From Candidatus Bathyarchaeia archaeon (lineage in GTDB: Archaea; Thermoproteota; Bathyarchaeia; Bathyarchaeales; Bathycorpusculaceae), in contig JAVZNC010000002.1 of assembly GCA_038882955.1 (NCBI GenBank), forward strand, positions 203,691 through 267,690: a stretch of 64,000 nt of DNA, read 5' to 3'. Position 1 is the stretch's first letter. Each line of letters opens with the position of its first letter. Under the pieces are notes generated by a model that was not told the DNA's origin, ran no database searches, and saw only the letters and a list, made by a program, of their open reading frames with translations. Position numbers and translations under genes: made by a program. Positions 1 through 60,831 of the stretch are shown here, piece by piece.

Positions 1-612
1 CTTTGTGAGGACTTCCACTTAGACGGAAGGATTCTTTTAATTTTTGAAGGTGTTGATGTTGAAGAGTGTAGCAGCGTTAAGCACAATCCTGTTGAACCTA
101 AAAGAATACTTTATGTAGGAGCCTTAAGGGGTTACAAGAATGTTGATAAAATCATTGAAGGCTTTGCTCAATTAGTGAAGAATGGCGTGGGAAGCTTTAA
201 GTTGGTTATCGTGGGTGACGGACCGGAGCGTCCGTTTTTAGTTAACTTGGCTTATAAATTGGGTATTAATGGGCTGGTGGAGTGGAAGTCTGGGTTGACG
301 CGACAGCAACTGTTGAATGAGTATGCTAGAGCCAGCGTTTTTGTCCATTTGTCTCCGTTGGAAAGTTTTAGCCGCGTTGTTTACGAAGCACTTTTAATTG
401 GTGTTCCAACAGTTGTTTTAAATTTTGGTGCAACAGAACACTTGGTTAAGGAAGGATTTGCAGAGGGAGTTAGCTCTCTTAGCGCAAAAGAAATTGCAGA
501 GGCGATTTCAAAAGCCCTTATGAGAATACATAGCAAAATTGAAGGTTCAAATTTTTTGAGTTGGAAAGAGTATTTAAATAAACTCATCGAACTTTATCAT
601 AGCTTAGTGTAG
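1..612 (+). CDS. Glycosyltransferase family 4 (GT-B fold), C-terminal part. The 5' end lies outside the window.
   Basis: Frame 1 is open from base 1. The translation ...ILYVGALRGYKNVDKIIEGF..LVIVGDGPERPFL..SPLESFSRVVYEALLIGVPTVV is a typical GT4 C-terminal Rossmann half with an E-x7-E-like donor motif. Confidence 0.75.
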   Translation, partial: LCEDFHLDGRILLIFEGVDVEECSSVKHNPVEPKRILYVGALRGYKNVDKIIEGFAQLVKNGVGSFKLVIVGDGPERPFLVNLAYKLGINGLVEWKSGLTRQQLLNEYARASVFVHLSPLESFSRVVYEALLIGVPTVVLNFGATEHLVKEGFAEGVSSLSAKEIAEAISKALMRIHSKIEGSNFLSWKEYLNKLIELYHSLV

Positions 613-52947: not shown

Positions 52948-53985
52948 TTATTCAAGGCTATCTATGTAATTGCGTATGTCCTCGGTTGCAGCTGAAGGAA
53001 TTGGCAAGTCTTTCATTGTCAATAACCCTGGGCGTGCCTTAATCACCTTTGGAATTGCATTTGCAACCATCGCGACGGTTCCTATGTCACCGTGGATGCA
53101 TGGTTGTATTTTTTGCCTTATTTCTGGGACTCCTTCAATTGTTATGGCGTCATACTCTTCTTCAGCGCCTAGATAAGCTTGGAACTCAAGCGTTATTACT
53201 TCTTTGTTCTTCATCATCCCTTTAGCCTTTTGTTTCAAACCTGCCACATCGCCAGCCTTAACTTCTATAAATTGACTTTTTACTGGTTTTTTGGCAATGA
53301 CCGGTTCAACCTGTTCGGCTATGATTTTATCTAGTTTCCATGCAAGGGCGTCAGCAAACATTGCTATGGATTGTTCAAGCCCCACATGTCCAGTGATCTG
53401 TTTGCTTTCCATTTTTTGCCTAAATTCTTCCACGGTTAGTCCAGCACCTATCTTTTTTTGGAATGGTAATCGCCTTTTTGTCGCATCCATAACCCTTGCT
53501 GCTTCTATTTTTTCGATTTTCTGGCAAACCGCCGTTAACATTATGACAAGCGTGTCCATCAAGAAGCCCGGGTTAATGCCCGTACCAAGCACCGTAGTGT
53601 TGTATTTTTTGGCTAGGGCGTCTAATTTTTTTGCAAGTTTTGGCTCAGTGTAGTATGGATAAGTCAATTCTTCACACGTGGATATCACTTTTAAGCCGTT
53701 TTTTACAAGTGAAGCTATTTGCGGGTACGTATCTTTAAGATAGGATGATGTTGCGTGTATTGCCAAATCCGCTCTAACCTTAGATAGGGCTTCATCAACG
53801 TCCTTTGAAATTTTTATTCCAAGACTTTTTGGCGCTCCTAATACTTCGCTCAAGTCTTTGCCCACCTTATCTTTCGCAACGTCTACGGCTCCAACGATTT
53901 CTACGCCATCCTTTTCCAATAGAAATTTGGCGATTAACGTTCCAACTGCGCCAACGCCGAATAGGATAACCCTTACTTTGCGCAT
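52948..53985 (-). CDS. DapB-N-domain NAD(P)H-dependent amine dehydrogenase-family protein (2,4-diaminopentanoate dehydrogenase-like).
   Basis: VILFGVGAVGTLIAKFL Rossmann motif, GTGINPGF, and HGD. The start is taken at M26. Confidence 0.55.
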   Translation of the reverse strand: MRKVRVILFGVGAVGTLIAKFLLEKDGVEIVGAVDVAKDKVGKDLSEVLGAPKSLGIKISKDVDEALSKVRADLAIHATSSYLKDTYPQIASLVKNGLKVISTCEELTYPYYTEPKLAKKLDALAKKYNTTVLGTGINPGFLMDTLVIMLTAVCQKIEKIEAARVMDATKRRLPFQKKIGAGLTVEEFRQKMESKQITGHVGLEQSIAMFADALAWKLDKIIAEQVEPVIAKKPVKSQFIEVKAGDVAGLKQKAKGMMKNKEVITLEFQAYLGAEEEYDAITIEGVPEIRQKIQPCIHGDIGTVAMVANAIPKVIKARPGLLTMKDLPIPSAATEDIRNYIDSLE

Positions 53986-54114
53986 GTGTGTTTCACCTTC
54001 TCTTCTCTTCATTGTTTTTAGCTTATAAAATGTGCTTGCAGCATTTGTGGGATAGAGCATTGTTTAGAAACCTTTACATTTGTAAACCTTTATATCCATG
54101 AGAAAACTCAAACT

Positions 54115-55563
54115 ATGAGAGGGCCTCAAGTCTTGGCGACTGCAGAAGCCACGATGCATAAGGAAGAAATCAGAAAGCTTCTGAGCACTGAAAAGCTTAA
54201 GCACTGCTTTGAATGTGGCATTTGCACCGCAAGCTGTTCAATGGTTGAACTGCTTGGAGATGATTATAATCCACGGGGGCTTCTCGAAAAAATTTTCTTA
54301 AATGCGGAAGACGCATTATCTTCGCATGAGCTTTGGCTATGCGCATGGTGTTACAAATGCCATAGGCGATGTCCACAAGCTCTAGAAGTTCCAGAAATCT
54401 TTCTTCTTATGCGAACAATCGCCGTTAAACGCGGCTATATACACCCTCTGGAAAAAGCTATACAAAAAGTTGCACGAAACATCCCATTACCCCTCATAGT
54501 TACACTTGTATGCTTGCATCCAGAGCGTGCTGGACTTAACATACAAGACGTTTTGGAAAAGGTTCAGGATGAACGCACTAAACTGAAAATGAAAAAGACG
54601 CTAAAAGGCAGTAAATGTAAAGTAGCGGTTTTAGGTTCTGGACCAGCAGGTTTAACTGTTGCTTATGAGCTTGTTCGAAAGGGTTATCCAGTAACGGTTT
54701 TTGAGTCTCTTTCAGAGCCCGGGGGAATGCTTAGAAAGTGTATACCGGAGTATCGCTTGCCAAGGGACGTTTTAGAGGATGAATTGCGTTTTTTGGAGAG
54801 TTTAGGTGTTGAGTTTAAAGTTAACGTGCATGTAGGTAAGGACTTGGGTTTTGATGATTTGTGGGATGAAGGTTATAGGGCTATTTTTGTTGGTGTTGGC
54901 GCCCATAAAAGTCAGAAATTGAAGATTGATGGCGGAGACTTGAAGGATGTTGTTCACGCTCTAGATTTTTTGTGGCAGGTTAAAAGCGGCGTGAAAGTTG
55001 AGCTTGGCAAAAACGTTGCAGTTATTGGCGGCGGAAATGTGGCTGTAGATGCCGCCAGAACCGCTTTAAAACTCGGCGCAGAAAATGTGACAATATTCTA
55101 TCGAAGGTCGAGGACTGAAATGCCCGCGAATCCGTGGGAGGTTAAGGAATCAGAGGAAGAAGGCGTAAAAACAGAGTTTTTGGTAGCTCCAAAGAGAATT
55201 TTAGGAGAAAATGGACACGTTTCAGCTGTTGAGTTTGTCCGCATGCAGCTAGGCGAATTGGACGAGTCTGGTAGAAGAAAACCTTTACCAATAGAGGGTT
55301 CAGAGTTTGTTTTCAAAGCGGATACCATTATTTTGGCGATTGGCGAGGCTCCAGACTTAGAGTTTTTACCTAAAGGCATCGTTCTTAATGATGATGGAAC
55401 AGTTTGGGTTAACCCCATAACCATGGAAACAAGTATGCGTGGAGTTTTTGCTGGTGGAGACGTTGTTACTGGTCCAGCATCGGTTATTGAGGCTATTTGC
55501 GCTGGAAAACGTGCCGCCAACTCCATTGACCGCTACCTAAAGGCTGAGGGAGGCATGGGTTGA
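54115..55563 (+). CDS. Fusion protein with an HdrC-like 2x[4Fe-4S] helical domain followed by a GltD/NfnB/SudA-like NAD(P)H:FAD oxidoreductase.
   Basis: N-terminus: CFECGICTASC ... CAWCYKCHRRCP, two CxxCxxCxxxC motifs about 45 aa apart. From aa ~165: VAVLGSGPAGL (FAD), VAVIGGGNVAVDAAR (NAD(P)H), GVFAGGDVVTGP. An alternative start is at 54154. Confidence 0.75.
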   Translation: MRGPQVLATAEATMHKEEIRKLLSTEKLKHCFECGICTASCSMVELLGDDYNPRGLLEKIFLNAEDALSSHELWLCAWCYKCHRRCPQALEVPEIFLLMRTIAVKRGYIHPLEKAIQKVARNIPLPLIVTLVCLHPERAGLNIQDVLEKVQDERTKLKMKKTLKGSKCKVAVLGSGPAGLTVAYELVRKGYPVTVFESLSEPGGMLRKCIPEYRLPRDVLEDELRFLESLGVEFKVNVHVGKDLGFDDLWDEGYRAIFVGVGAHKSQKLKIDGGDLKDVVHALDFLWQVKSGVKVELGKNVAVIGGGNVAVDAARTALKLGAENVTIFYRRSRTEMPANPWEVKESEEEGVKTEFLVAPKRILGENGHVSAVEFVRMQLGELDESGRRKPLPIEGSEFVFKADTIILAIGEAPDLEFLPKGIVLNDDGTVWVNPITMETSMRGVFAGGDVVTGPASVIEAICAGKRAANSIDRYLKAEGGMG

Positions 55564-58001
55564 TGGCTGAAGAAAAGGTGCAGAAACTTGGCGATGTTTC
55601 GGAAGAGGTTCGCATAGGTGTTTATGTTTGCCATTGCGGATTAAACATTGCTGGCTCTGTAGATTGTGAAGAAGTAGCCAAATTCGCCTCTACGCTTCCG
55701 TGTGTTGTTCTTGCCAAGGACTATAGATACACTTGTTCAGATCAAGGGCAAGCCATGATAAAGAACGATGTTAAGGAGCATAGGCTTAACCGTGTTGTTG
55801 TAGCCTCTTGTTCGCCGCGTCTTCATGAACCAACATTCCGCAAGGTTTGCGAAGAAGCTGGGCTAAACAAGTATCTTTTTGAGATGGCGAACATACGTGA
55901 GCATTGCAGTTGGGTTCACTTGTATGATCGTGAGGCTGCCACCGAAAAAGCTAAAGATTTGGTTAAAATGGCTGTTGCAAAGGCTGCTCTGCTTCAACCC
56001 TTTGAGGAAATTGAGGTTCCAATACTTCGAAAGGCGTTAATTATTGGTGGCGGTGTTGCTGGAATTCAAGCTGCCCTAGACCTCGCAGACACTGGTTATG
56101 AGGTTTATCTTGTTGAGAAAGAGCCTAGCATCGGCGGGATGATGGCGCGAATAGACAAGACATTTCCAACAATGGACTGTTCGATCTGCATTCTTGCGCC
56201 CAAGATGTCGGATGTGGGGCATCACCCGAACATTGAACTTTTAACTAACAGCGAAGTCGTAGAGGTGAAAGGCTACATTGGCAATTTTCACGTAAAAATA
56301 CTGAAAAAACCCAGATATGTCACGAAGGACTGTTCTGCATGTGGCGAATGCACAAAAGTTTGTCCAGTCACAGCCCCAAACGAGTTCGACGCAGGCTTAG
56401 CCATGAGACACGCAATTTTCACTCCTTTTGCACAAGCAGTTCCAGCCACTTACATAATAGACATGAACCTCTGCCTCAACAAGGAAGGCATAATCGTCTG
56501 CGACAAATGCATACGAGCATGCGAAAGGCAAGCCATAACCTTTGACATGAAACCAGAAACAGTAGAAATAGACGTTGGCACCATAATCGTGGCGACAGGC
56601 GCAGACGTTTTTGACCCTTCAACATTACCAAATTATGGATACGGGAAATCCCCAAACGTCATAACTTCACTGGAATTTGAAAGACTCATTAACGCTGGCG
56701 GGCCCTCTGGCGGACACCTAATAAGGCCAAGCGACAAGCAAATACCAAAGCGCGTGGCATTCGTCCAATGCGTAGGCTCCCGCTCCAACAGAAGCGAAAG
56801 GCAGTATTGCAGCAACGTCTGCTGCATGAACACTATTAAGGACAGCCTCCTAATCAAAGAACATTGGCCCGAAACAGAAATCTACGTCTCCTATGTTGAC
56901 ATAAGGGCTTATGGCAAGGGATTCGAAGACCTTTACAGACGGGCGAGAGAAGAAGGCGTCAAATTCATACGCGGATTACCCGCAGAAATAATTGAAGATA
57001 AGAAAACGCATAACTTGTGGCTTGTAGGCGAAAATACGCTGCAAAAAGAGCTATACAAAATAAATGTTGACATGGTGATATTGTCGGTTGGCTTGGAACC
57101 GCGAAAAGACAGCGAAATGATACAGCGGCTACTCACCCTCTCCCGAACACAATACGGATTCTTCATGGAGGCGCATCCAAAACTAAGACCAGTGGACGCT
57201 GCAACTGGCGGCATATTTTTTGCCGGATGCGCTGAAGCGCCTAAAGACATAAAAGACAGCGTGACGCAAGCAAGCGCCGCTGCGGCTAGAGCTGGAATTT
57301 TGATGGCTAAGGGCAAAATAGCTGTTGAGGCGATAACGCCTATAACTTTTCCAGAAAAATGCAAAGCTTGTGGACTCTGCACAAAAGTTTGTCCCTACAA
57401 CGCTTTAACTTTAAATAAAGAGTTGAAGCGTGTAGAAGTGATAGAGGCGGCTTGCGGCGGTTGCGGAACATGCGCAGCCGAATGCCCATTCGAAGCCTTA
57501 ACCCAAAAACACTTCACAGACGAACAGATTCTTGCGCAAATAGACGCCGTAACGGAACATGACGCACATAAGAAGATTGTTGCTTTCTGCTGCAACTGGT
57601 GCGCCTATGCGGGCGCGGACTTCGCTGGAGTAAGCAGAATGCAATATCCGCCAAGTGTCCGAATAATAAGAACCATGTGTTCTGGGCGGGTTTCACCAAA
57701 ATTCATTGAAAGAGCCTTTGCAAGGGGCGCTGCAGCGGTGCTTGTTGCTGGTTGTCATCCAGGAGATTGCCATTACATAAACGCCAACTACCAAACGCAG
57801 AAGCGTGTGGATCGCTTCTGGAAAAGAATGGAACAGCTAGGATTGAATAAGGAGAGACTTCAACTTTTGTGGGCTTCTGCGGCGGAAGGCGAAAGAATTG
57901 CCTCAAAAATTCGTGAGATGCACAAGATGATAGAGAGCATTCCGTTTGAAGAAATAGAACGTTCCAAAAAGGCTTTTGAAAAAGCTTTTGGAGGAAATTA
58001 A
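55563..58001 (+). CDS. hdrA: Heterodisulfide reductase subunit A-like flavoprotein fused to a C-terminal MvhD-like domain.
   Basis: VYVCHCGLNIAG; IIGGGVAGIQAALDLA; FPTMDCSICIL; FVQCVGSRS..YCSNVCCM. Ferredoxin motifs CSACGECTKVCP, CKACGLCTKVCP and CGGCGTCAAECP. The C-terminus is FCCNWCAY..MCSGRV..AGCHPGDCHY. The ATG overlaps the upstream stop (TGATG). Confidence 0.85.
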   Translation: MAEEKVQKLGDVSEEVRIGVYVCHCGLNIAGSVDCEEVAKFASTLPCVVLAKDYRYTCSDQGQAMIKNDVKEHRLNRVVVASCSPRLHEPTFRKVCEEAGLNKYLFEMANIREHCSWVHLYDREAATEKAKDLVKMAVAKAALLQPFEEIEVPILRKALIIGGGVAGIQAALDLADTGYEVYLVEKEPSIGGMMARIDKTFPTMDCSICILAPKMSDVGHHPNIELLTNSEVVEVKGYIGNFHVKILKKPRYVTKDCSACGECTKVCPVTAPNEFDAGLAMRHAIFTPFAQAVPATYIIDMNLCLNKEGIIVCDKCIRACERQAITFDMKPETVEIDVGTIIVATGADVFDPSTLPNYGYGKSPNVITSLEFERLINAGGPSGGHLIRPSDKQIPKRVAFVQCVGSRSNRSERQYCSNVCCMNTIKDSLLIKEHWPETEIYVSYVDIRAYGKGFEDLYRRAREEGVKFIRGLPAEIIEDKKTHNLWLVGENTLQKELYKINVDMVILSVGLEPRKDSEMIQRLLTLSRTQYGFFMEAHPKLRPVDAATGGIFFAGCAEAPKDIKDSVTQASAAAARAGILMAKGKIAVEAITPITFPEKCKACGLCTKVCPYNALTLNKELKRVEVIEAACGGCGTCAAECPFEALTQKHFTDEQILAQIDAVTEHDAHKKIVAFCCNWCAYAGADFAGVSRMQYPPSVRIIRTMCSGRVSPKFIERAFARGAAAVLVAGCHPGDCHYINANYQTQKRVDRFWKRMEQLGLNKERLQLLWASAAEGERIASKIREMHKMIESIPFEEIERSKKAFEKAFGGN

Positions 58002-58004
58002 AGC

Positions 58005-58295
58005 ATGCCAGAAAGAATTTGGCGTAAACCCCTTGACAGCGAGAAAGCAAAGCCACTGAAAGCAGAAATTCACATAATTCGCGACCAGTGTAAAGGCTGC
58101 GGCTTCTGCATTCAATACTGCCCCCAAAAAGTTTTGGAAGAATCAAATGATATTAATGCGCGTGGGGTTCACCCGCCAAGGGTTGTTAACGAAAGCAAAT
58201 GTGTTTTGTGCAGTTTTTGCACATCGGTTTGTCCAGATTTCGCCATATTCGTGATCGAAAAGAAGGAGCGAGAAGAAAATGTCAAGCATAATTAA
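58005..58295 (+). CDS. korD: 2-oxoacid:ferredoxin oxidoreductase delta subunit (2x[4Fe-4S] ferredoxin).
   Basis: CKGCGFCIQYCP and CVLCSFCTSVCP. It begins 3 nt after the hdrA stop. Confidence 0.8.
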   Translation: MPERIWRKPLDSEKAKPLKAEIHIIRDQCKGCGFCIQYCPQKVLEESNDINARGVHPPRVVNESKCVLCSFCTSVCPDFAIFVIEKKEREENVKHN

Positions 58296-59442
58296 AAAGA
58301 AGGCCATACTGACGGGCGCCCACTTCATGAACGGCGACTTTGCATGTGCAGAAGGAGCAATAGTAGCGGGCTGCAGATTCTTTGCGGGATACCCTATCAC
58401 TCCAGCAACGGAAATTGCCGAGCGTCTTGCGGAAAGAATGCCAGAAGTAGGCGGAATCTACATTCAAATGGAAGACGAAATTGCATCAATTGCGGCGGTT
58501 ATAGGCGCTTCCTATGCTGGATTAAAAGCCATGACCGCTACTTCTGGGCCGGGCTTTAGCCTAATGCAAGAGAACATCGGTTTGGCTGTTATGACGGAAA
58601 CTCCGTGCGTAATCGTTGATGTTATGCGTGGCGGACCAAGTACGGGACAGCCGACGATGCCGGGGCAGCAGGATGTTATGCAAGCTAAGTGGGGTTCTCA
58701 TGGAGATTACGAAATTATTGCTTTGTCGCCTTCCTCTGTTCAGGAAATGTTTGATTTGACGGTTGAAGCTTTTAACTTGTCCGAGATTTATCGTGTCCCA
58801 ACGATATTGTTGGCTGATGAGGTTGTTGGGCATATGTGGGAAAAAGTGGTTATTCCACCGCCTGAAAATTTGAGAATTGTTAATCGTAAAAAGCCAAATG
58901 TTCCGCCAGAAAAGTATTTTCCATTCATGCCCGACGACGACCTTGTTCCGCCTATGGCATGTTTCGGAGAGGGTTTCGCTTTTCACGCTACTGGTTTGAC
59001 ACATGATGAGCATGGTTACCCGCAAACGCAGAGTTCAGAAGTTCAAGAACGACTTGTTAAGAGGCTCTGCGACAAGATACGAAAGAACGTGGACAAAATA
59101 GTGAAGGTTGAAGAGGTTATGCTTGAGGACGCGGACGTTGTGGTTGTTGCCTACGGCATAGTTGCAAGAGCCGCTTTAAGCGCCGTTAGAAAGGCTAGGG
59201 CAGAGGGCATAAAGGCTGGACTTCTCCGTCCAATCACATTGTGGCCGTTCCCAGAAAAGCATGTAGGAAAAGCCGCGGAAAAAGCGAAGAAAATAGTTGT
59301 TGCAGAAATGAACTGTGGTCAACTCTTACGCGAGGTTCAAAGAGCAGCTAAAGAAACTCCAGTTGTTTTCCTTACGAAACTGGGTGAAGAACCACATACG
59401 CCTATGGAAATTTTGGAGGCAATTAGGAGGAACAATAAATGA
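58279..59442 (+). CDS. korA: 2-oxoacid (likely 2-oxoglutarate):ferredoxin oxidoreductase alpha subunit.
   Basis: NGDFACAEGAIVAGCRFFAGYPITPATEI, TATSGPGFSLM. 387 aa. Confidence 0.85.
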   Translation: MSSIIKKKAILTGAHFMNGDFACAEGAIVAGCRFFAGYPITPATEIAERLAERMPEVGGIYIQMEDEIASIAAVIGASYAGLKAMTATSGPGFSLMQENIGLAVMTETPCVIVDVMRGGPSTGQPTMPGQQDVMQAKWGSHGDYEIIALSPSSVQEMFDLTVEAFNLSEIYRVPTILLADEVVGHMWEKVVIPPPENLRIVNRKKPNVPPEKYFPFMPDDDLVPPMACFGEGFAFHATGLTHDEHGYPQTQSSEVQERLVKRLCDKIRKNVDKIVKVEEVMLEDADVVVVAYGIVARAALSAVRKARAEGIKAGLLRPITLWPFPEKHVGKAAEKAKKIVVAEMNCGQLLREVQRAAKETPVVFLTKLGEEPHTPMEILEAIRRNNK

Positions 59443-60278
59443 CAACGGAGGTTGAACATCCGCTCTCACGGTATTTGCGAAAGGCTATGATGCCTCACAT
59501 ATGGTGTTCTGGATGTGGCAACGGCATAATCCTCAACTGCTTCGTTCACGCAGTGGATGAGCTGCAAATGGACATGGACAAGCTTGTGGTTGTTTCTGGA
59601 ATTGGCTGTATTGGGCGTGCAGCGGGCTACATAAACACAAATTCCTTCCACACAACACACGGTCGCCCAATAGCTTTTGCTACTGGAGTGAAACTTGCTA
59701 ACCCAAACCTTGAAGTAGTCGTCATAAGTGGCGACGGCGACCTCTTCGCAATTGGTGGAAACCACTTCATACATGCAGCGCGGAGAAACATAGGGATAAA
59801 GGTGATCTGCGCAAACAACTTCAATTATGGAATGACTGGTGGACAACAGGGACCAACAACACCACTTGAAGCAATTACAACAACAACGCCTTATGGAAAC
59901 ATTGAGCATCCATTCAACCTTGTTCACCTCGCTGCGGCTTCTGGGGCAACGTATGTGGCCAGGTGGACAACGCTTCATGTGCGCAGGTTGACGCAGTCAA
60001 TTAAGAGGCTCTTGCAGAAGGATGGCTTCGGCTTTATTGAAGTTGTTTCGCCATGTCCCGAAATTTATGGTCGGCACAACAAGATGAGAACTGGACTTGA
60101 AATGATGGAGTGGTTTAGAAGAAGCTCCGTGGTGGAAAACTTTTCCGATCCTGCGAAGGCTGAAATTACTCCGCAAAGGATAGTTGTTGGAGAATTTATG
60201 AACATAGATAAGATAAGTTATGAGAGATTTCTCCATGAGAAGATAGCGCATATAAATGAGGAGAAAATGTGGCGGTGA
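59439..60278 (+). CDS. korB: 2-oxoacid:ferredoxin oxidoreductase beta subunit (TPP/FeS).
   Basis: WCSGCGNGI, SGIGC, GDGD TPP motif. ATGA overlap with korA. Confidence 0.85.
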   Translation: MTTEVEHPLSRYLRKAMMPHIWCSGCGNGIILNCFVHAVDELQMDMDKLVVVSGIGCIGRAAGYINTNSFHTTHGRPIAFATGVKLANPNLEVVVISGDGDLFAIGGNHFIHAARRNIGIKVICANNFNYGMTGGQQGPTTPLEAITTTTPYGNIEHPFNLVHLAAASGATYVARWTTLHVRRLTQSIKRLLQKDGFGFIEVVSPCPEIYGRHNKMRTGLEMMEWFRRSSVVENFSDPAKAEITPQRIVVGEFMNIDKISYERFLHEKIAHINEEKMWR

Positions 60279-60285
60279 TTTAAAT

Positions 60286-60831
60286 ATGCGAGTTGAAGTT
60301 AGATTTGCAGGTTTCGGCGGTCAAGGCATAATAAAATCTGGCATAATTGTGGCGTCAGCTGCATGTATTTACGGCGGAAAAAACGCCGTCCAAACACAGT
60401 CTTATGGTCCAGAATCTAGGGGTGGCGCTTGCAAATCCGAAGTTGTCATAGCCGAAGAGGACATCGATTTTCCCAAAGTTGTTGAACCAGACGTGTTGGT
60501 TGTGATGTCTCAACACGCCTACAACGAGTATGCGGAAAACGTTAAAGCTGGTGGAACAATACTTTTAGATCCAGACATGATCCCCCACGAGAGAGATTTA
60601 CGTGGCGTAAAGGTTTTTCGTGTACCAGCAACGCGAATTGCTGAAGAACTTGGCAGAAAAATTGTTGCCAACATAGTTATGCTTGGCGCTTTTGCGTCAA
60701 TCACCAAACTTATTGATAAGGACGCTGTGAAAAGCGCCATTAAAGACAATGTGCCCAAAGGAACTGAAGAGTTAAATCTCAACGCTTTCGAAATGGGTTA
60801 TAATTATGGAGAAAACCTTCTGAAAAGCTAG
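60286..60831 (+). CDS. korC: 2-oxoacid:ferredoxin oxidoreductase gamma subunit.
   Basis: VRFAGFGGQGIIKSG, QSYGPESRGG. The ATG is 7 nt after the korB stop. Confidence 0.8.
   Translation: MRVEVRFAGFGGQGIIKSGIIVASAACIYGGKNAVQTQSYGPESRGGACKSEVVIAEEDIDFPKVVEPDVLVVMSQHAYNEYAENVKAGGTILLDPDMIPHERDLRGVKVFRVPATRIAEELGRKIVANIVMLGAFASITKLIDKDAVKSAIKDNVPKGTEELNLNAFEMGYNYGENLLKS

Follow-up and report, generated by a model that had tools for sequence, protein, structure and literature searches.

An HdrC::GltD fusion encoded next to HdrA in Bathyarchaeia, a candidate NADP(H)-linked subunit of a heterodisulfide-reductase-type complex without HdrB

The DNA analysed here (the window) is a stretch of 64,000 nt from a Candidatus Bathyarchaeia archaeon (NCBI GenBank assembly GCA_038882955.1, contig JAVZNC010000002.1, positions 203,691 to 267,690 of the forward strand). 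One of its open reading frames encodes a protein of 482 amino acids (aa) in which an HdrC-type di-cluster ferredoxin domain is joined to a flavoprotein module of the GltD/NfnB type, and the next gene encodes an HdrA::MvhD fusion. With moderate confidence, the HdrC::GltD protein is taken to be the NADP(H)-linked terminal subunit of a heterodisulfide-reductase-type complex that is without HdrB. The parts of the fusion gene are listed below with the evidence for each in brackets; positions are those of the window.

54115..55563, + strand: hdrC::gltD fusion open reading frame, 482 aa from ATG 54115 (open reading frame)
54175..54468, + strand: HdrC-like helical di-cluster ferredoxin domain, aa 21-118 (TIGR03290, matches to solved HdrC, fold)
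54205-54375, + strand: Cys motifs C31-C41 and C76-C86P of the fusion (sequence)
54469..54609, + strand: relic of the ordinary GltD/NfnB Fe-S domain (its C-terminal half) and linker, aa 119-165 (hhalign, alignments, NF009410)
54610..55548, + strand: NfnB/GltD-type flavoprotein, aa 166-478 (Pyr_redox_2, matches to solved chains, fold)

The original prediction had described two CxxCxxCxxxC motifs with a helical spacer near the N-terminus, and both are present. The first, CFECGICTASC, consists of C31, C34, C37 and C41, and the second, CAWCYKCHRRCP, of C76, C79, C82 and C86, the last followed by P87. Between the motifs lie 34 residues (45 if counted from one motif start to the next), which form a helical spacer in the predicted structure. 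All eight motif cysteines are invariant across 24 full-length relatives, down to 39% identity.

Profile searches, which had been proposed as a check on the N-terminus, place Pfam Fer4_8 (aa 28-88, 36.4 bits, cut-off 27) and Fer4_17 (aa 31-90, 29.9 bits, cut-off 22.2) above their cut-offs, and Fer4_20, the ordinary GltD/DPD domain, below its own (14 bits on aa 1-170, cut-off 25.8). The NCBIfam HdrC model TIGR03290 aligns with aa 29-117 at 72 bits (E 4e-20), covering only profile positions 2-89 of 144, and the whole-protein HdrC cut-offs are not reached by the fusion (72 vs 160 bits for TIGR03290, 61 vs 350 for NF041779). A comparison of aa 21-118 with the solved HdrC chains 8rvv_C, 8rvu_c and 5odc_C gave E-values of 6e-17 at best and about 1e-16. 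The structure prediction and comparison with HdrC were likewise carried out. A model of the isolated domain (pLDDT 87.3) finds HdrC throughout Foldseek ranks 1-7, and in an all-against-representatives structure search its best match is 7bkb_C (Z 11.1, root-mean-square deviation 2.6, 93 residues aligned, 32% identity), followed by the HdrC chain 5odc_C (Z 10.1). The C-terminal domains of SdhB/FrdB score Z 6.3-6.9, and the Fe-S domains of GltD, NfnB and DPD score Z 5.9, 5.8 and 4.4, respectively. Profile, sequence similarity to solved HdrC and predicted fold thus agree on an HdrC-type di-cluster domain at the N-terminus. The statement that canonical GltD, NfnB and SudA start with a different domain stands insofar as Fer4_20 fails and HdrC is far closer, but it does not extend to the fold. 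HdrC, SdhB/FrdB and GltD/NfnB/DPD domains are all helical ferredoxins, and the canonical GltD domain is therefore a diverged member with the same fold.

A true start downstream of the Cys motifs, which would leave the motifs in an untranslated leader, is ruled out, since all three candidate start codons (ATG 54115, TTG 54133 and ATG 54154) precede the C31 codon at 54205. In addition, M43, the next Met after C31, falls inside the site of the first cluster, and 80 species conserve the motifs as protein. The likely start is TTG 54133, which is used in the database copy (476 aa) and agrees with the N-termini of most homologues. In current databases the fusion is annotated as “FAD-dependent oxidoreductase”, as “glutamate synthase beta-like” or even as “HdrA”. 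No RNA sequencing runs containing the stretch are listed; only hot-spring DNA metagenomes contain it.

Important is that the HdrC-type domain did not simply replace the GltD Fe-S domain, as had been proposed. An HdrC-type di-cluster domain is indeed present, but the swap is not clean, because aa 78-158 stay collinear with the ordinary GltD Fe-S domain. In hhalign, with 15 ordinary GltD/PRK12771-type N-domains as the comparison set, this section aligns with 97.4% probability (E 1e-11), and the collinearity extends from the canonical CxxxCP to the linker that precedes the Rossmann fold. The model NF009410 also aligns aa 81-477 of the fusion in one piece to its profile positions 49-447. By sequence register, IPLPLIVTLVCLHPER (aa 123-138) is the decayed form of the canonical second Cys motif, xPFPAICGRVCxHPCExxC. 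The canonical CGRVCxHPCExxC is reduced to TLVC[FL]HPER in the fusion family, and one of its four cysteines, C133, is left. The alignments thus identify the N-terminal domain as a chimera, in which both motifs and the spacer are HdrC-like (aa 21-118), a stretch within this part (aa 78-118) resembles the HdrC and GltD families alike, and aa 119-165 are the Cys-depleted second half of the former GltD domain. C133 (codon 54511-54513) is kept in at least 90% of relatives and corresponds, by sequence register, to a cluster ligand of the canonical domain; the eight other cysteines suffice for two [4Fe-4S] clusters.

In the model of the whole fusion chain (pLDDT 88.8) the di-cluster domain occupies the position of NfnB's own Fe-S domain. 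Superpositions on NfnB, DPD and GltD start at model residue 28-39, opposite the canonical first motif. With 4ylf_B the superposition has Z 38.1 and 387 aligned residues (model 28..480 to chain 40..464), with 5jca_L 391 residues are aligned, and with DPD model residue 32 maps to chain residue 82. The two registers conflict, i.e., the first motif of the fusion corresponds to canonical motif I in space, and the second motif corresponds to motif I by sequence. The pseudo-twofold symmetry of the ferredoxin fold may account for this conflict.

Two metagenomic proteins differ from the fusion at the N-terminus. P0231 (396 aa) begins near fusion residue 109 and retains the relic motif, MPIPFAYCWICLRP, without the di-cluster domain; it may be a truncated gene call or a cluster-less variant. 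P0168 (693 aa) has an SdhB-like N-terminus (Fer2_3 and Fer4_8), then the second half of Fer4_20 and Pyr_redox_2, and is thus an alternative helical ferredoxin joined to the same flavoprotein; its JGI label is succinate dehydrogenase Fe-S protein.

The remainder of the fusion is a complete GltD/NfnB-type module for binding two dinucleotides, as had been predicted. Pyr_redox_2 matches aa 169-462 (2e-31), with the FAD fold GSGPAG at 174-179 and the NAD(P)H fold GGGNVA at 305-310 and YRRS at 329-332. The closest solved relatives are NfnB-type modules, first 9n5u_A (E 8e-95) and then 9bov_A, 8oh5_C, 5jca_L and 4ylf_B, and the fold comparison gives Z 40.0 for 9bov_A and 39.0 for 5jca_L, beside the 38.1 for 4ylf_B. 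The cut-offs of the GltD/gltA equivalog models are not reached by the fusion (TIGR01316, 314 vs 471.75; TIGR01318, 248 vs 483; PRK12771, 355 vs 516). GGGNVA, which is of the GxGxxA type, and YRRS do not vary in 16 relatives with at least 66% identity, and from these motifs the fusion probably prefers NADPH. The same motifs presumably point to NADPH in GltD and NfnB as well. A rule in which the GxGxxA-type motif is read as an indication of NADPH is quoted in PMC12054007.

In an unrooted tree of the flavoprotein module, 14 fusion rows and P0129 (PRK12771-type) lie on one side of a branch with 96/97 support. The tree has no outgroup and shows clustering of fusion rows only, which does not prove a single origin. 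A motif filter left 16 of the 49 rows out of it (P0122, P0127, P0204, P0130, P0132, P0134, P0140, P0145, P0168, P0175, P0197, P0199, P0215, P0237, P0258 and P0259).

The distribution of the fusion, a survey of which had been suggested, was examined by tblastn in a census of 80 loci with one genome per species; the number of evaluable loci varies by feature. The loci were located with a 14-row alignment of close relatives. They show the fusion to be widespread in Bathyarchaeia, from which most of them come, and include two complete chromosomes of Atabeyarchaeia (Asgard), one metagenome-assembled genome (MAG) labelled “Thermococci” and two bacterial-labelled contigs. The N-domain and the flavoprotein are within a single open frame in 78 of the 80. 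In a word-based search, every relative returned carries Fer4_8/Fer4_17 together with Pyr_redox_2, and those with a named source are labelled Bathyarchaeia. A protein of a Bacteroidales MAG, in a 46%-identical cluster, was found outside the 80-locus scan. The two bacterial-labelled contigs, L048 (Acidiferrales label) and L091 (Krumholzibacteriaceae label), were discounted as a sign of bacterial spread. They are probably mis-binned archaeal contigs, since their synteny is Bathyarchaeia-like and their HdrA sequences are 86% and 81% identical to that of the window. Six larger proteins that align from about aa 30 (P0132, P0136, P0145, P0202, P0237 and P0258) were considered as the same fusion and rejected. 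They are HdrA types in which GltD is inserted after the first motif of the HdrA ferredoxin domain, and they retain an intact second half of Fer4_20.

The genes that surround the fusion gene are the following, where OFOR is 2-oxoacid:ferredoxin oxidoreductase.

55560..58001, + strand: hdrA::mvhD fusion, HdrA2-type, 813 aa (NF040770, FlpD at aa 673-793)
58005..58295, + strand: OFOR delta subunit, a 2x[4Fe-4S] ferredoxin (Pfam Fer4 families; OGOR_delta-like, 69 bits, below cut-off)
58279..59442, + strand: OFOR alpha subunit (POR_N, PFOR_II; PRK08659, 597 bits, cut-off 411)
59439..60278, + strand: OFOR beta subunit, thiamine-pyrophosphate-binding (TPP_enzyme_C; best KorB-type PRK09628, 273 bits, below cut-off)
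60256..60831, + strand: OFOR gamma subunit (POR; PRK08537, 251 bits, cut-off 235)
52948..54060, - strand: 2,4-diaminopentanoate-dehydrogenase-like (Ord/amine dehydrogenase family) NAD(P) enzyme (DAP_DH_C; NF040740, 354 bits, cut-off 400)

The stop codon of the fusion overlaps the start codon of hdrA (TGATG), and a GAGGGAGG site is present upstream of the hdrA start. The 813-aa protein scores 1260 bits with the HdrA2 model NF040770, above the cut-off of 1100. HdrA::MvhD lies directly downstream of the fusion in all 73 evaluable loci, and a four-subunit OFOR comes next in 57 of 61. The alpha and gamma subunits of the window OFOR pass generic 2-oxoacid models, and the beta and delta subunits look KOR-like but score below their cut-offs. 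Across loci L026-L105, identity to the window copy is 70-95% for HdrA::MvhD, and HdrC::GltD is less conserved (45-83% for the N-domain, 49-87% for the flavoprotein). The gene order is OFOR δαβγ, fusion and split HdrA/MvhD in Bacteroidales, HdrA::MvhD followed by the fusion in a second lineage, and an FrhB-like gene, the fusion, two HdrA-like genes and MvhD in a third. The pairing of the fusion with HdrA/MvhD survives gene reshuffling across three gene orders.

HdrB was searched for by tblastn with the three HdrB/CCG proteins of the genome in up to 6 kb of flank on each side, and none of the 80 loci matched. No CCG-domain gene was found in the window locus, and no NfnA/SudB or GltB partner was found beside the fusion in the window locus or in related loci whose genes were read. 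Elsewhere in the genome, on a different contig, ordinary HdrC+HdrB pairs are retained, together with two further paralogues of GltD. They are part of an Hdr island at about 149-181 kb of contig C1 (loci L002-L016) with two HdrC+HdrB pairs, an HdrD-like fusion and GltD paralogues of 585 aa (PRK12771-type) and 472 aa (NfnB-type). A 1011-aa open reading frame in the island has a weak GltD-like match and may be a type III HdrA.

The Ord-like gene is divergent from the fusion gene and upstream of it in 58 of 72 evaluable loci, and in the window genes for MoaE, PhoU_div and a metallophosphoesterase lie behind it. The Ord-like and fusion genes are separated by 54 nt of divergent intergenic sequence, which has a 9-nt direct repeat, AAACCTTTA, at 54068-54076 and 54084-54092, the copies being 16 nt apart. 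A TATA-like TTTATAT (54089-54095) overlaps the end of the second copy. The repeat may serve as an operator for both genes or as two promoter elements.

Docking of the fusion N-domain on HdrA::MvhD was modeled with our own alignments. The complex has an ipSAE score of 0.72 (0.72, 0.74 and 0.72 in separate runs), and the best of three controls has 0.16. The runs have at least 95% contact agreement, with a partner pLDDT of at least 80. Of 80 solved complexes, 58 attain the ipSAE mark, as do 2 of 110 mismatched pairs; these counts are only approximate because own alignments were used. In the modeled interface, fusion aa 27-55 and 85-89, with the first Cys motif and C86-P87, face HdrA 404-412, where the invariant C404/C417/C421/C422 motif begins. 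It should be noted that the docking score is a measure of likeness to the HdrA-HdrC complexes already solved, from which it may derive, and does not show that the window proteins bind. The model suggests that the HdrC-like domain may dock on HdrA. The original prediction had the fusion plug an NAD(P)H dehydrogenase into the HdrC site of HdrA and replace HdrB chemistry. Consistent with this are the adjacent HdrA::MvhD in 73 of 73 loci, the absence of HdrB from the loci and the docked model; the clean domain swap that was part of the idea did not hold up. Binding of the fusion to HdrA and the replacement of HdrB chemistry are both inferred.

In the mechanism that we favor, the HdrC-like domain would hold two [4Fe-4S] clusters, with C31, C34, C37 and C86 as the ligands of one and C76, C79, C82 and C41 as the ligands of the other, and would dock on HdrA::MvhD where HdrC docks in HdrABC. 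In the simplest chain, electrons would pass from the HdrA cluster to the C31/34/37/86 cluster, the C76/79/82/41 cluster, the GltD FAD and NAD(P)+. The HdrA flavin would in this way be wired to the FAD of the NfnB/GltD module, which would exchange hydride with NAD(P)(H), probably NADPH. The NADP+/NADPH couple would stand in for the CoM-S-S-CoB couple and for HdrB. The co-operonic OFOR (in Bathyarchaeia, Atabeyarchaeia and some Bacteroidales) would feed the complex or be fed by it, and the whole complex would most likely move electrons from 2-oxoacid/ferredoxin to NADP+. This route would parallel the one from ferredoxin through HdrA2 and HdrC2 to HdrB2 in the Methanosarcina HdrA2B2C2 complex. 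A second branch to ferredoxin, i.e., bifurcation, is possible, and the fact that HdrA is always kept speaks for something beyond a simple wire.

Several points weigh against a terminal NADP(H) subunit of this kind. The fusion family is known from sequence and predicted models alone, and the docking model covered the N-domain of the 482-aa protein. P0204, a distant homologue (41% identity), is without an HdrA neighbour on its short contig, and the OFOR is missing from four divergent loci. Linking ferredoxin to NADP+ is already within reach of a bare NfnB/SudA-type protein, and therefore a simple wire fails to explain the constant presence of an 813-aa bifurcating flavoprotein. In terms of textbook potentials, NADP+ is at about -320 mV, a 2-oxoacid donor is near -500 mV, and the HdrC branch is normally the high-potential one. 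With NADP+ on that branch and such a donor, classical bifurcation energetics would be unneeded.

The alternative that survives best, though it is unlikely, is a stand-alone ferredoxin:NADP+ oxidoreductase of the SudA/NfnB kind that uses free ferredoxin or the OFOR delta subunit. The HdrC-like domain would then be a mere variant of the helical ferredoxin and HdrA::MvhD a functionally separate neighbour. The position of the modeled di-cluster domain at the NfnB Fe-S site (4ylf_B Z 38.1; 391 residues aligned in 5jca_L), the one fold that both domain types share (Z 5.8 for NfnB and 5.9 for GltD against the N-domain) and the lone P0204 are compatible with such an enzyme. However the adjacency in 73 of 73 loci, with overlapping stop and start codons, and the pairing kept in three gene orders argue that HdrA is not an incidental neighbour, and the N-domain is far nearer to HdrC than to NfnB (72 vs 14-21 bits; Z 11.1 vs 5.8).

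Also improbable, and ranked after the stand-alone enzyme, is a double-flavin, Nfn-like bifurcating machine in which the GltD-type FAD itself bifurcates as in NfnB. NADPH electrons would be split between the HdrC-like clusters, as the low-potential branch into HdrA, and the [2Fe-2S] cluster of MvhD, which would take the role of the NfnA [2Fe-2S] cluster. Two coupled bifurcation modules would reach the very low potentials needed for reductive carboxylation by the OFOR. The closest solved relatives of the flavoprotein are all bifurcating Nfn/Stn modules (39-45% identity), and the operon does include an OFOR that fixes or releases CO2. Coupled bifurcation modules are also proposed for class II benzoyl-CoA reductase (bioRxiv 10.64898/2026.04.10.717634). 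Against the double flavin stand that nothing places the MvhD cluster near the GltD FAD and that the locus encodes no high-potential acceptor; moreover, a bifurcating NfnB-type FAD cannot be told from a non-bifurcating one by sequence. A third alternative, the small subunit of an archaeal glutamate synthase that passes NADPH electrons to a GltB-like protein, fits the JGI label of relatives as glutamate synthase beta-subunit-like but is very improbable, as no GltB gene is beside the fusion in loci whose genes were read, the scores remain far short of all GltD/gltA equivalog cut-offs (314 vs 471.75, among others) and the conserved partner is HdrA::MvhD.

The proposed NADP(H)-linked subunit has parallels in several known systems. 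In HdrA2B2C2 of Methanosarcina acetivorans, HdrA2 was shown to hand electrons from ferredoxin or F420H2 on to HdrC2, and HdrC2 to HdrB2 (Yan, Wang and Ferry 2017, PMC5296606). The HdrA of the window is of the same HdrA::MvhD fusion type, and an HdrC-type di-cluster unit is the predicted link from HdrA. However the window operon is without HdrB, its HdrC unit and an NAD(P)H flavoprotein form one polypeptide, and an OFOR is part of the operon. In addition, the hdrA and hdrC genes are adjoining and overlapping in the window and unlinked in M. acetivorans. The fusion N-domain also matches the HdrC of the methanogen complexes MvhAGD-HdrABC and Fdh-Hdr-Fmd (5ODC, 7BKB, 8RVU; Z 10.1-11.1), with a like predicted docking on HdrA. 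In those complexes the C-terminal part of HdrC binds HdrB, whereas in the fusion the GltD Fe-S relic and the flavoprotein are found there instead, and the donor is a hydrogenase or formate dehydrogenase, in place of which the window locus encodes an OFOR.

By fold, the flavoprotein part fully belongs with the modules of NfnB/NfnSL, NfnABC, StnC, GltD and DPD (4YLF, 5JCA, 9BOV, 9N5U, 8OH5, 6S6S, 1H7W; Z 33-40, 29-44% identity). Unlike those modules, the fusion fails Fer4_20, has lost the second Cys motif and is without an NfnA or GltB partner, and the missing ligands are supplied by a new N-terminal CxxCxxCxxxC with an HdrC-like spacer.

Cases in which a GltD module is joined to HdrA have been described before. 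Type III HdrA, with GltD inserted in the HdrA ferredoxin domain, occurs in ANME-1 and Bathyarchaeota (PMC12054007, PMC9012536), and further cases are HdrL and the “HdrAL/POR” clusters of sulfate reducers, of which the Syntrophobacter cluster was noted but undetected in the proteome (PMC5947623). Proteins of the type III HdrA/HdrL type are among the homologue matches (P0132, P0136 and P0145). They share with the fusion the joining of a GltD-type NAD(P)H module to HdrA, and the Syntrophobacter cluster is also OFOR-associated. However their GltD is within the HdrA polypeptide, on the ferredoxin-domain side, with an intact CGRVCxHPCExxC; the fusion is a separate open reading frame with a stop/start overlap, an HdrC-type attachment and a different HdrA branch. 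Members of NF045663 (pyridine nucleotide-disulfide oxidoreductase/dicluster-binding protein, 759 aa) likewise combine GltD-like and HdrC-like parts, and the two halves of the fusion each match this model, but there the flavoprotein comes first, and the fusion, at 127 bits vs a cut-off of 530, is not a member. No paper on an HdrC::GltD fusion, or on its pairing with HdrA2 and an OFOR, was found in the literature searched, the coverage of which was incomplete.

A more far-reaching reading, offered tentatively and on the whole doubtful, is that all six genes specify a single supercomplex, which would belong to a new bifurcating class. In it, the OFOR would be the donor module on the MvhD domain, replacing the hydrogenase or formate dehydrogenase, and the HdrA FAD would split the 2-oxoacid electrons between an HdrC::GltD branch to NADP+ and another branch that brings ferredoxin to an unusually low potential. 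In the opposite direction, such a supercomplex would drive reductive carboxylation with NADPH and ferredoxin. If this is true, abundant sediment archaea own an uncharacterised energy-coupling site, which would tie NADPH and the Wood-Ljungdahl pathway to amino-acid carbon.

Few flavin-based electron-bifurcating hubs are known, and HdrA is among them; its bifurcation partners outside methanogens are a long-standing question. The fusion family offers a defined and testable answer, in a globally abundant and barely cultured archaeal class, the Bathyarchaeia. In this answer the HdrBC disulfide-reducing end would be exchanged for an NADP(H) flavoprotein by means of a covalent HdrC adaptor, and the operon points to a 2-oxoacid oxidoreductase as the likely partner on the carbon side. 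The finding also bears on the annotation of the fusion genes, whose present labels were given above. Furthermore, the chimeric N-domain shows how modular redox enzymes are rewired, with one old Cys motif lost and a new one gained upstream.

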